Shown in pieces: positions 14,432 to 22,500 of a stretch of DNA of 64,000 nt. This DNA is from a bacterium (GTDB taxonomy: Bacteria > UBA10199 > 2-02-FULL-50-16 > JAJFLM01): positions 2,333,982 to 2,397,981 of the forward strand of contig CBDCFN010000016.1 of the NCBI GenBank assembly GCA_965216315.1, written 5' to 3'. The first letter of the stretch is position 1. Every line of letters starts with the position of its first letter. A program made the position numbers and the translations under genes. The notes under the pieces are model-generated. The model did no database searches, was not told the DNA's origin, and worked only from the letters and a program-made list of their open reading frames with translations.

Positions 14432-16549
14432 TTAGATTCGCTTGCGGGTCACCGCCAAGGCGCTCATCGCCGCGAGCATCAGCAGTAACAGTCCTGCCAA
14501 AGGTTGCTGCGAACCGTTCGGGGTCAGGGCACAGCCGCCGCCGTCGCCGACCGCTTCCTCGCCTCCTTCGCCCTCACCTTCGCCTTCACCTTCGCCTTCA
14601 CCTTCACCTTCACCTTCACCTTCGCCTTCACCTTCACCTTCGGCTTCACCGGCGCCGCCGCCGACCAACTCAAAGGCGCCGAGATCACAGTTATCCCCTT
14701 CAGGACGCGCCGTCCCGAGTTGATCTTCAACGGCGCAGGTCGCATTATTACCCGCATCGACAGCCGGGCTTCCCGCCTGCAGCGCAATCGTGAGAGTATC
14801 ACCACCGTTATCCGCAAGACCCGCAGAGTCAAAGAGTGGATCGCCGGTAATCACAAGAGCAGAGTCACCAATTATATCACATTCAAAGGTGTCACCGATA
14901 AAGTTGGCTCCTATCGCAATCAGAATAGAATCGTCGTTATCCAGGTCAAATTCATGAAAGCAATCATCAACTCCCGTTCCGGGGCTAGCATCATTATTTC
15001 CCGCGATAATCGAATTAGCCAACGAGGCATTATCGACGTCGTCATAGACGTAAATACCCCCACCGTCACCATTGGTCAAACCACCGCTATCAGAGTCAGC
15101 GACATTGAACGCGACTGTCACGTTATTGAGAGCGAGAGAGTAATCTTGTTGATAGATACCCCCACCGTGTCCAGATGCTTCGTTATTGGCCACGGTTGTA
15201 TTGTACAGGCCGACATGCCCATAGCTCCAGATTCCGCCTCCATTACAATCATCAGCATCATCATCAAATCCAGTTGCGCGGTTTCCACTAATTGTGCTGT
15301 TCGTAATCGTAAGACCGTATTCATTTTCGTTATGGATTCCTGCACCACCTTCACCATCATCCATGTTATCATAACACCCAACCAAGATATTATCCGCAAT
15401 CGTTGAGTTATAAACCACGGTCACATACGCACGAATTCCACCTCCATTACCTTGATACACCACATTCCCCCGTATCGTCGAATTGTCCACGATAAGATAG
15501 TCATTGTCGTAAATCCCACCACCATAATAATTGGAATCCTGGTCGTGATTGGCTATATTCTCTTCAATTAAACTGTTTTCGACGTAAAGCGTGTAATCAT
15601 TGTAAATCCCACCACCGTCCTCATCGGCTTTATTTTTACTGACGGTGGAGTTAGTCAGGTAGAAGACGTCGCCATTGTTATAGATACCGCCGCCTCGATT
15701 GTCATAGGCGTAATTTTCCGAAACGAGGCAGTTATCCATGGTGGCCGAATAACCTGAATAAAGACCACCGCCGCTACCATCGGCTCGATTGTTCCGGATT
15801 TCACAATCTTCGAAGACATGGGCTCCAGCCGACAGATAAATCCCCCCACCATCACTATGAGACCTGTTGTTAAGGACTTGGCTATTAACCAGGCTTAAGC
15901 CGCCAGAATCCACATGAATCGCCCCACCGGAGCCACCGGCCTCATTGTTCGATAACTCACTATTGCCACTGACAATCAGGGTACCGTCACCAAGGTAAAT
16001 TGCACCCCCATCGGAAGAAGCGTCATTGTGGGTGAATTGACTATTCTCAACGGTCAGGCTGCCATCACTGTCGGCATAAATGCCTCCGCCGCTTGCCGCC
16101 TCATTACCTGTGACGAGACAGTTTATCAGCCGAAGCACGCCTGAATGACTAATGTAGATAGCCCCGCCATTTCCGGCTTGATCCCCATTCTGGAGAGTGA
16201 GCCCCGAAATCGTTACTCCGACGCCGTCATCAGTCGGATCGATTTGAAAGATGCGATCAGCGGTCGCGGGCCCGTTCCCATCAATAATACTGGTCCCATC
16301 CCCGGCCCCCTGAATCGTGATACTCTTATCGATCAGAATCTGCCCCAACCCTGGATCGATTGCGATTGTCATATTCGCTGGGATATTGATGATGTCACCA
16401 TCATCCGCCGTGACAATCGAGGTCCGTAACTGTCCTACAGCACCGGTATCGCCGTCGTTGTCAACATTAATGGTTTCAGCCTGGACCGATCCAACCGTCA
16501 AACCCAGCATTAATGCCGCCATTGAGAACGTCTTCATGACCTTACCCAT
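14432..16549 (-). other. Polyprotein module 4
   Basis: Internal signal [30 protein letters not shown]; (GE)n linker; ends GGGCALTP...[23 protein letters not shown]. Confidence 0.85.
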
Positions 16550-19500: not shown

Positions 19501-22500
19501 CCCCACCTTCATTGGCGTCCGCCGTATTATTCGCCAACGTGACGTTATTGAGCCTCAAGTCATCGTAGTTGACGATCCCGCCCCCATGACCATCCGCTTC
19601 ATTGTTGACGATTGTCGAATTGACGACCAGCACACTCCCATCGGCATAAAGACCACCGCCCTCAGGGTCGTCACTCGCATCGATTTCGCCCCGCGCGCTA
19701 TTTCCAGTCAAAGCTGAATTACGAATCACGGTGCTGGTGCCATCAGCAAAGATCCCACCCCCGCCATCGATATCGCCCGAAGCCACGTTATCCGTGATCG
19801 AGACCTTTTCGAAAACGGCAAATCCATTCTGATAAACGCCACCGCCATCGCCGCTCGAAGCGACGTTTTGCGCAATGCTTCCGCCGGTGACGTAGAGAAA
19901 ATCCGAAGAATCATTGAAAATACCACCACCGGAACCGCCCGCATCATCCTCATCGGCATCCGCGATATTCTTGGAAACCGTCGTCATCTCGAGCGTGACA
20001 GTCCCCTCGTTGTAGATACCACCACCGTCACCGTCCGCTCGGTTGCCGGAAATCGTGCTATTATTGATCGTCAACAGATCTTGCGTAAAGATACCCCCAC
20101 CTGCACCATTATCTAACGATCGGTTATTATTGATCTCACAATTATCAATCGACATGGCCTGCAGATTGTGGATGCCGCCACCGCCATTGCCGCTATTGTC
20201 CGAGGAGTTCCCGGAGATGGTGCAGGAAGACAGATTGACACTGGAAGAGTTATTATAAATTCCACCCCCTTGATCGGCCTTATTGCCCGTCACCTCCGTG
20301 TTCGTTAGGGTCAGGGCACCGGTATCGACATAAATGCCCCCACCGCCACTGCCGGCGTCGTTATCCTCGATCTTTGAATCGGAACCCACAATCACCATGC
20401 CTTCATCGGTATAAATCCCACCACCACTACTCCCCGCAATGTTATGCGAGACCGTCGTGTTGCTGACGATCAAGGCACCCGAATCATCGACGTGAATCCC
20501 GCCGCCATTGGTCGACGACTCATTCGCAAACACGATCGAATCCTTCACTTCGAGCGAACCATTACCGTTGAAATGGATCCCACCGCCGGGAAAACCGGCT
20601 ATATCGCCGCGCTGAATCGTCACGCCGCTGATCACGACACTGATATCACTCCCGGCCGGATCGACGTGGAGCGCCCGACCGGAGGTCACGGCCCCATTCG
20701 CGTCGATGACGCTAAGACCCGCGCCCATGCCGCTGATCACCACGTCCTCCAAAACATCGATATCACCATCGACATTGGCATCGTCATTCGTGCTTGGAAT
20801 CAACAAGGTAAAGGTACCCGCCGGCAGACTGATGACATCAATTGCAGTCGCCGTCGCTTCACCGGCCAGACACGTGTCTACAGCGGCGTTCGTATTAGCC
20901 GCCTCAATGGCCTCCCGAAGCGAACAGAACCCATTGTTCGTGCTCGGATCATCATCGAGTGTCTCCGTAACGGTAATCGTCTCTGCCCGTACCGGCAGAG
21001 GCGCCGCCACCACAGCGAGCATTGCCGCGACTGCTAAGGAACCAAACATCTTACGCATAAACCGTCTCCTCACCATTAAGGGCAGCGTCAATAGACCCAG
21101 TAAGGCCAACGCGGCCGTCGAACCCATTCCTTGAGAGGACCCAGCACTCAAGGAACAACCGCCCCCGGTATCACCGGCGTCACCGGTATCACAGACATCA
21201 CCGATGCCATCGCCATCCGCGTCGGCCTGATCGGCATTCGCATCGCTGGGACAGTTGTCAGCGGCATCAGCCACGCCGTCGCCGTCGCTGTCCGCATCCG
21301 CATCACAGGCGTCGCCAGTCCCGTCTCCGTCAGAGTCGGCCTGATCCGGGTTAGAGACCCCGACGCAGTTATCGCTGGCATCGTCAATCCCGTCACCATC
21401 GGCATCCGCATCACAGACATCTCCAATCCCATCGCTGTCGGCATCTTCTTGACCGGGGTTGGCATCGCCGGGACAGTTGTCGTCGGCGTCATCGATGCCA
21501 TCATCGTCGCTGTCATCGTCTCCAAACTCGAAGGCCCCAAGATCACAATCGGCGTCTTGCGGCCGGGCCACCCCACGCTGATCGGTCGCTTCACAACTCC
21601 CTTGATCGCCCTTATTCCACGCCGGACTCGCCGCCGTGATGGCCATCGTATCCGTTGGACCACCGTTATCGGCCAAGGCCGCGAGACCCGGATCTTCATG
21701 AATGACGCTACCGGCATCACCGATGATGCTGCAATCCGTATCATCTTCGACCAGATTGGGACCCACGGCCGTCACATTGGTTCCCCCGTCGTAGCAGTTC
21801 GGACCCATGCCCGCCGCCGTATTATCTGCAATAATGCTATTACTAAGCGTTGTCGAATCCGTATTGGAAAAACCGCCGCCGTCGCCACCCGCTGTATTCC
21901 CAGCAATAGTGACATTGTTGAGCAACGTGTTGGCACCTATAGAAAGCGCTCCACCATCATCAGCCGCCTCATTGCCGTTAAACGTGCTGTTAACGATCAC
22001 CCCGAAGTCAGAGCTAGTATTATAGATTGCACCGCCGTCACGACCGGCCCCCAGCGCCTTATTCAACGAAAAGGTACTATTGCGCACAATGAACTCATCC
22101 GCCGAATACAGTCCTCCGCCATGCCCATCGGCGGTTTCGTTTTGTAAAATGGTTGAACTATCAATCGACGTATCGGCATTCGCGTAAACACCGGCGCCTT
22201 CCGAATCAGCCCCTTCCGTCTTATTGAGCTCGATCGTACTCGCCCGTATCACCAGCTCGCCTTCGGCATAGATTCCACCGCCTTCGCCGTTACCCGCGGC
22301 ATCGCGCCCCGAGGTATTTTGCTTAATCGTACTATTATCGACAATCAGGGAGTCATTGGTCCAAACCCCCCCGCCGTCATTGGCAGCAGTGTTATTTTCA
22401 ATATTCGTGTTGTCCAAAAGAATCGTCAAATCATCACTATAAATCCCGCCACCATCATCACCACTAGCGGCCTCATCGGTTTTATTCATCGCGACATCAG

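Follow-up and report, generated by a model that had tools for sequence, protein, structure and literature searches.

The window analysed here is a 64,000-nucleotide stretch of bacterial DNA (contig CBDCFN010000016.1 of assembly GCA_965216315.1, positions 2,333,982 to 2,397,981; GTDB lineage Bacteria; UBA10199; 2-02-FULL-50-16; JAJFLM01), and the gene under study is P0001, a stop-free open reading frame (ORF) of 2997 codons on its minus strand (14432..23425). All features of the gene given below lie on that strand. The 2997-residue translation is divided into four modules (residues 1-789, 790-1558, 1559-2292, and 2293-2997) with no stop codon between them, each consisting of a signal peptide, a right-handed beta-helix whose repeats are of the Chlamydia-PMP type, a choice-of-anchor Q domain, and a sorting tail. 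P0001 scored 254.1 bits against NF041518 (choice_anch_Q, NCBIfam; cut-off 25) over four stretches and 26.9 bits against TIGR04214 (CSLREA_Nterm; cut-off 25) in module 2 only, with Pfam scores of 206 bits for Beta_helix, 115.5 bits for Chlam_PMP, and 69.2 bits for TSP_3; the family domains are retained in every module. Thrombospondin type 3 repeats were recognized in modules 1-3 by reading the translation. In module 4, their place is taken by a (Gly-Glu)n run (GEGEGE...) at 14543-14680.

Translation of P0001 likely starts at the ATG at 23350 (M26). This codon is the first of the module 1 signal peptide (23276..23350, ending V-Q-A) and has AGGGGG 6 nt upstream. The orthologue in a second genome of the host family (G001) begins at the equivalent position, with AAGGAG. 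Two in-frame ATGs, at 23425 and 23350, lie 25 codons apart at this end of the ORF; each is preceded by a GGGGG Shine-Dalgarno (SD) sequence with a predicted anti-SD duplex free energy (dG) of -9.3, and a signal peptide is found only at 23350.

The four tails share the motif GGGC[SA]L, followed by 17-18 hydrophobic residues that form a putative transmembrane (TM) helix and then by RRR, RRGER, RKRSR, or RKR. Tail 1 (21059..21166) begins GGGCSL and ends in the basic loop RRRF, tail 2 (18752..18868) runs from GGGCSL to RRGERP, tail 3 (16550..16666) from GGGCSL to RKRSRN, and tail 4 (14435..14542) from GGGCAL to TRKRI and the stop codon. Only tail 4 is truly C-terminal; tails 1-3 continue in frame for 2208, 1439, and 705 residues, respectively, each leading directly into the signal peptide of the next module. 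These internal signal peptides, judged by inspection (basic n-region, h-region of 15-20 residues, small residues at -3/-1), lie at 20984..21058 for module 2 (MRK..VRA, followed by E), 18680..18751 for module 3 (MRN..SQA, followed by A), and 16478..16549 for module 4 (MGKVMK..VQA, followed by E).

Each of the three junctions (J1-J3) has a start codon with an SD 5-9 nt away that is complementary to the host anti-SD. At J1, AGGAGA (21070-21065) precedes the ATG at 21058-21056 by 6 nt, in the codon series AGG AGA CGG TTT ATG, in which AGG AGA encodes Arg-Arg; at J2, GGGGAG (18765-18760) lies 8 nt before the ATG at 18751-18749; and at J3, AGGAG (16561-16557) lies 7 nt before the ATG at 16549-16547. 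All three ATGs are in frame, and an n-h-c signal peptide begins at each, while the SD bases code for the basic residues behind the preceding TM helix. A previous sequence-only reading of this DNA had reported three SD-plus-ATG motifs on the minus strand, with the same bases serving as basic tail and as spaced SD; all three were recovered at exactly the positions it gave, and the double use of the bases holds, with SD codons for basic residues and spacings of 6-8 nt.

The junctions can be drawn as hairpins that are topologically self-consistent: the TM helix of the tail would run out-to-in, the loop of 6-13 residues with 3-5 positive charges would be cytoplasmic, and the next signal peptide would run in-to-out and end in a signal peptidase I site. 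We read P0001 as a probable secreted polyprotein of four modules that is cut at these tag/signal-peptide hairpins, with the SD and ATG motifs retained from once separate genes, and give this reading a probability of about 0.6. Translation would begin at 23350, and the first signal peptide would engage Sec. Each module would then be exported and anchored by its Cys motif, TM helix, and basic tail (N-out, C-in), whereupon the following signal peptide would re-insert N-in, C-out. Signal peptidase I would cleave after VRA, SQA, and VQA, with ETITV, ATYQV, and ETINV as the mature N-termini predicted for modules 2-4 by whole-chain synthesis and internal initiation alike. A single myxosortase-family protease would cleave at the Cys tag, which is probably lipidated, thereby releasing the four surface proteins individually and leaving three small hairpin remnants. 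The SD and ATG motifs would represent the start signals of genes that were once separate, or that were repeatedly split and re-fused. Internal starts could yield chains of three, two, and one modules as a secondary route to the same mature modules, harmless or mildly useful; they would do no harm, as a signal peptide stands at the front of every product. The topology, the cleavages, and any internal initiation are predictions from the sequence.

For comparison with genuine start sites, anti-SD duplex energies were calculated with the 16S rRNA 3' end of the host genome, which is canonical (..GGATCACCTCCTTTCT; CCUCC tail). The predicted values are -8.6 (J1), -7.9 (J2), and -8.5 (J3) kcal/mol, which place the junctions among the strongest 1.7-2.5% of the 9888 internal in-frame ATGs from host-genome ORFs of at least 300 residues. 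Among the 35 internal in-frame ATGs of P0001 itself, J1-J3 rank 1, 2, and 3 (tied). All 12 real starts examined, those of first or unfused modules in the host and related genomes, gave dG between -7.3 and -12.1, a range that contains the -7.9 to -8.6 of the junctions. Local mRNA structure at the three ATGs is below the P0001 average (19th, 4th, and 25th percentiles), which is mildly weak and not decisive.

Strength and spacing that match real starts, and the standing of J1-J3 as the three best internal ATGs of the gene, are what would be expected if nested initiation were designed, that is, if the loop codons were dually selected and chains of four, three, two, and one modules were the main source of modules 2-4 in the host family. 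Such an arrangement could serve a rising dose of distal modules, or compensate for ribosome drop-off or 5' decay on the 9-kb message. In-frame internal starts with SD-like sequences are, moreover, documented in Escherichia coli in the available sections of bioRxiv 10.1101/520783. We nevertheless regard designed nested initiation as unlikely, on the strength of the comparisons with relatives and of the codon tests that follow.

To identify relatives, a module query was used, and fused arrays were found in three other genomes. In G001, of the same family as the host, orthologues of modules 2 and 3 are fused on a 3-kb contig. G010 represents another family of the class and contains ORFs of 1491 residues (two modules) and 3089 residues (four modules); G074, which belongs to the genus of G010, has four-, three-, and two-module ORFs alongside single genes of 704-725 residues. 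Two tandem modules in G077 are unfused. Matches at E 1e-40 or better were obtained in 7 of 93 genomes of the class. Two protein-database searches, covering proteins of 1648-5245 residues, returned mostly generic TSP3/beta-helix giants; the true relatives among them were only P0006, P0009, P0012, P0073, P0074, and P0131, of which P0009, P0012, P0073, and P0074 have four modules each, and no closer same-family protein was found. A metagenome scan with a junction-spanning query gave 20 loci, mostly thrombospondin-repeat matches, and no fused junction. A genome-collection scan with a six-module alignment gave 77 loci, of which most are single beta-helix genes from Chloroflexota and elsewhere, and fused junctions appeared only in contigs of SMAG_U1372, the G074 genome; the regular-expression matches at L019, L034, L043, and L056 in that scan were rejected as false. 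Seven further G001 contigs contained no additional junction.

A tree of 46 modules was built by quick maximum likelihood (LG+G4, SH-aLRT support only; one 323-residue fragment omitted, outgroup not clean). Window modules 1 and 2 each pair with G001 modules (SH-aLRT 100 each), module 3 pairs with P0009_m1 (98), and module 4 pairs with P0009_m2 (92). Because every window module has its closest kin in other genomes, the four are old paralogues and not recent repeats. By the pairing of modules 3 and 4 with P0009_m1 and P0009_m2, the adjacency of these two modules is shared with a distant relative, and the fusion itself probably is as well.

Fourteen junctions were available as DNA; the start codon is ATG in 9 of them, GTG in 2, and absent in 3. 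The ATG is present at all three window junctions and at the single G001 junction; G010 has three ATG and one GTG among four, and G074 two ATG, one GTG, and three without a start codon among six. A dG of -7.3, that of the weakest real start, is reached only by the three window junctions. The G001 junction, orthologous to J2, reads AGAGGAAGCCAG-ATG; its loop residues and signal peptide have diverged from those of the window, with the ATG and an SD-like GAGGA at 6 nt kept, at a dG of -6.5, below the -7.3 mark in strength. The ten G010/G074 junctions range from +1.0 to -6.4, with two ATGs at dG 0 or above. Another 12 junctions were known from protein only, and 5 of them (6 including one ambiguous case) have a Met in the loop, so that Met occurs at 11-12 of the 23 non-window junctions. 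Eight orthologous pairs could be compared, and 4 of them differ in the presence of a start codon (ATG/GTG versus none): GTG/none, Met/none, and Met/Met for G010 against P0012; none/none, none/Met, and Met/Met for G074 against P0074; Met/none for J3 against P0009; and Met/Met for J2 against G001. All 26 junctions of the window and its relatives, by inspection, keep an h-region and a small-x-small (AxA-type) site.

The start signals have disappeared from about half of the homologous junctions and therefore appear dispensable to the fused design. The internal signal peptides, in turn, seem to be selected even where no ribosome can start, and it follows that the chain would be made whole, with the signal peptides acting from inside it. 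For designed nested initiation, this comparison is the main difficulty: none of the ten junctions in the other family has a start-grade SD and three of them have no start codon, and the Met or start codon differs in half of the orthologous pairs, including the counterpart of J3 in P0009. A single same-family comparison speaks in its favour: ATG and SD persist in G001 although the loop and the signal peptide have diverged. The SD codons, whose conservation among homologous junctions the sequence-only reading had made a test of its proposal, are not conserved in the other family (0 of 10 start-grade), and at the one same-family junction, in G001, the ATG is kept with an SD of -6.5. That reading had offered either nested products or a relic operon. 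The relic option came nearer, in that gene-start signals are retained; a conserved nested-start design does not fit, as the signals are lost in relatives; and a polyprotein made as a whole chain and cut at hairpins, to which the conserved signal peptides point, was overlooked.

The contribution of the amino acids to the SD motifs was assessed by holding the amino acids fixed and resampling the codons. With genome codon usage, P was 0.021 for J1, 0.27 for J2, and 0.005 for J3 (Fisher-combined 0.0019); with the codon usage of P0001 itself, the values were 0.071, 0.44, and 0.022 (combined 0.024). The combined P of 0.002-0.024 would suit dual selection of the loop codons, with the reservation that the encoded residues largely dictate the J2 SD (P 0.27-0.44) and that the evidence weakens to 0.024 when the usage of the ORF is taken as background. 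Arg codons at the junctions are AGA or AGG (AGR) in 5 of 9 cases versus 11% genome-wide (binomial P 0.0016), which again favours nested initiation until the unfused tails of the host genome are considered, where AGR accounts for 6 of 27 Arg codons (P 0.077 versus the genome; junctions versus unfused tails, Fisher P 0.074). AGR in tails may reflect a general slow-codon or purine preference that is independent of a downstream start. The first Arg after the TM helix in these unfused tails (n = 11) is often AGA or AGG. A dG of -7.9 or lower anywhere in the tail was seen for 2 of the 11 unfused tails versus 3 of 3 junctions (Fisher P 0.027), and in the Gly-rich P0001 8.75% of 15-nt windows reach -7.9. 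The SD-plus-ATG motifs are more than chance, though the Arg, Gly, Glu, and Lys residues of the basic loops force part of the signal.

The same figures can be turned to an account in which no initiation occurs at all, the SD-like strings being a by-product of Arg/Gly/Glu/Lys-rich loops with a taste for AGR, or pause sites after the TM helix, and the ATGs being decaying relics. SD-like sequences as translational pause sites are a contested idea. Amino-acid composition alone gives J2 a mean dG of -6.4 to -7.5, AGR is raised in unfused tails too, 2 of 11 such tails reach the same SD strength, SD-like windows of -7.9 or lower are common in P0001, and ATG and SD are visibly decaying in relatives. 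Even so, at all three junctions an ATG is paired with a strong SD at 6-8 nt and with weak local structure, and some use of such sites by a bacterial ribosome is to be expected, which leaves a complete absence of initiation improbable in our view.

Within the polyprotein reading, we place measurable internal initiation at J1-J3 just short of an even chance. That it is adaptive is rather unlikely; it could then offset ribosome loss or 5' decay on the 9-kb message. A fully dual mode of expression, in which the same 15-20 loop bases would be selected both as a positive-inside stop-transfer signal and as a full-strength ribosome-binding site with ATG, giving two delivery routes, is doubtful. If it were true, the array would have a built-in, tunable, 3'-biased stoichiometry of four surface proteins, and a single nonsense or sense mutation could toggle a junction between operon and fused form with function kept.

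The sorting side of the polyprotein reading was examined in the host genome as a whole. Among 25 regular-expression matches to the tail, 11 unfused tails and one further fused tail were kept, and 10 with upstream frames shorter than 100 residues were dropped. In the 11 unfused proteins, a tail of this kind is followed by only 0-10 residues before the C-terminus, and for this reason the tail is taken to be a real C-terminal signal here. The host genome encodes a single CPBP protease, which scored 118-120 bits against NF040914 (Mrt_core; cut-off 100). One such protease each was found in G001, G010, G074, and G077, and none above the cut-off in 14 control genomes.

In all 5 genomes checked, from two families, the myxosortase-family gene directly follows lspA and lgt on the same strand, adjacent or overlapping (L139:1465-3291, which is G000:C16:1903461-1906751 in the host genome, outside the window; L156:1416-3531; L157:1690-3754; L158:1524-3546; L159:1231-3324). 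The available sections of PMC11980579 describe the enzyme that lipidates the tag Cys as unidentified, with Lgt the leading candidate, and the conserved lspA-lgt-mrt order gives genomic support to Lgt as the putative enzyme.

Several observations weigh against the polyprotein reading. The tails lie below the TIGR03901 cut-off of 20 bits, at 14.9 (tail 1), 15.8 (tail 2), no match listed (tail 3), and 18.6 (tail 4), and are also sub-threshold in the JDVT-CTERM and Synerg-CTERM models; the host protease falls below the MrtP, MrtC, and MrtX equivalog cut-offs. With tails and protease sub-threshold and three of the tails not C-terminal, the system is myxosortase-like and not a proven MYXO-CTERM system, and it is not filed as a member. 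Terminal and unfused modules of the other family end in GGCSLIR, GGCSLVR, or GGCSLIAG immediately before the stop codon, with no TM helix or basic tail (L013:7540-7586 and 16790-16837; the module ends in L134, L135, L136, and L137; the C-termini of P0009, P0012, and P0074), while internal junctions of those same arrays carry the full tail, a contrast that the sorting model leaves unexplained. All three frames were read at the GGCSLIR ends, and a TM helix hidden in another frame was rejected.

Met is also far more frequent at the junctions (about 54-58%) than the few percent of a neutral expectation. Either young or recurrent fusions or some selection for the ATG must be assumed, for which dispensability alone does not account; the excess suggests that genes have fused and split repeatedly, that junctions have recombined with unfused copies, or that selection acts weakly. 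Conservation within the family, moreover, is known from one junction in one genome, G001. Finally, a second tag-to-signal-peptide fusion, unrelated to P0001, lies elsewhere in the host genome (G000:C16:1726251-1728476, outside the window; L140:1251-3476). It consists of a signal peptide, an acidic region, a GGGSGCAL tail ending in IVRRR, then SSQ, a lipoprotein signal peptide (LAMGC), and about 530 residues of FG-GAP-like repeats. Its junction has no ATG and only a GTG/TTG pair, which lies inside the h-region. An orthologue search in 40 relatives gave repeat-domain matches only and no orthologue, and this fusion could be a recent accident.

With regard to the integrity of the ORF, per-run contigs from four runs span all three junctions with 0 differences; the runs cover two samples from a single study, which may itself be the source of the window, and the comparison covered the gene apart from a repeat at 14562-14663. 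The host genome is a metagenome-type assembly of 16 contigs, and on that ground the ORF might be suspected of being an assembly artefact, of hiding overlooked stops or frameshifts, or of being a dead array of pseudogenes. The run contigs that bridge the junctions, even with a source that may be shared with the window, together with 2997 open codons, family domains kept in every module, and the same architecture in independent assemblies, make this hardly credible. An alternative genetic code or frameshift was rejected, since no stop codon occurs at the window junctions. In contigs of two runs, a module 3/4 variant differs at 67 of 936 positions over 16445-17380 (about 7%), a span that includes J3, and none of the 40 differences listed out of the 67 falls within 16547-16567. 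This variant is a co-occurring strain or a close paralogue.

A promoter/terminator consensus scan at the three junctions gave no terminator-like site and no useful promoter signal just upstream. An intrinsic-terminator-like hairpin with a T run (14385..14397) lies directly after the P0001 stop codon. The neighbouring genes encode a Na+/H+ exchanger, Fpg, and an APS kinase/PAPS reductase, and are unrelated to P0001.

Compared with known systems, the parts of this arrangement belong to known kinds, myxosortase-type sorting and internal start sites; what is new is a probable four-module polyprotein with start-grade signals in its hairpin loops. C-coterminal isoforms from internal starts are known for IF2, ClpB, and CheA. 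In tightly packed operons, a downstream SD can lie within the 3' end of the upstream gene, so that bases are doubly used; the P0001 junctions differ in having no stop codon, and ribosomes would read through. In the Bradyrhizobium FbcH cytochrome b/c1 polyprotein, signal peptidase cuts at an internal signal sequence. FbcH, unlike P0001, belongs to a respiratory complex and has one junction without a sorting tag, and there is no family relation between the two. For E. coli, 42 in-frame internal start sites were obtained by Ribo-RET, with ArcB-C verified, according to the available sections of bioRxiv 10.1101/520783. The P0001 sites resemble these in having an SD-like sequence and a start codon inside the ORF, in frame, at a domain boundary; they differ in that the shorter P0001 products would be the same mature proteins, each internal start opening a signal peptide, and in being read here from sequence alone.

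Closer likenesses come from the MYXO-CTERM/myxosortase system (MrtX; TIGR03901, NF040914; PMC11980579; bioRxiv 10.1101/2023.06.07.544157), with which the present one shares a tripartite Cys/TM/basic tail and one CPBP protease for many clients (at least 11 unfused here). In the MYXO-CTERM model, as given in the available sections of PMC11980579, Sec export and TM anchoring are followed by Cys lipidation, myxosortase cleavage, and then type II transport; the same paper reports that MrtX processes TraA in E. coli. The tag is described in the papers as restricted to Myxococcota, and the NCBI lineage of one relative of the host maps to Myxococcota by default. In the present system, by contrast, tails and protease are sub-threshold, three of four tags are internal, and the genomes are of 1.5-3.7 Mb and uncultured. 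Secreted bacterial polyproteins resolved at tag/signal-peptide hairpins were found by full-text literature search only in one paragraph, on Myxococcus xanthus MXAN_5598, and the main text of the Haft preprint, supplements not included, does not mention the terms internal, polyprotein, or fused. MXAN_5598 has an internal MYXO-CTERM, and according to the available sections of Guo, Haft & Wall (mBio 2025, PMC11980579) sorting tags can function in the middle of a protein. The likeness lies in a Cys/TM/Arg tag that stands mid-protein and that the authors of that paper think arose by gene fusion and is still processed.

If the polyprotein reading holds, giant ORFs of this type should be annotated as several mature proteins and not as one. 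P0001 would also offer a compact test system for polyprotein resolution by Sec, signal peptidase I, and myxosortase, for the use of ribosome-binding sites inside a translated ORF, and for the interconversion of operons and fusions. As far as the available text of PMC11980579 goes, MXAN_5598 has one junction between two unlike parts, treated in a single paragraph with no test, whereas P0001 has three junctions between four paralogous modules. Each P0001 junction, furthermore, has a cleavable Sec signal peptide together with an SD and ATG, in a different lineage and with a tag below the MYXO-CTERM cut-off. Among the arrays compared, no other shows multiple junctions as clearly as P0001, and start-grade signals at every junction were seen in P0001 only.

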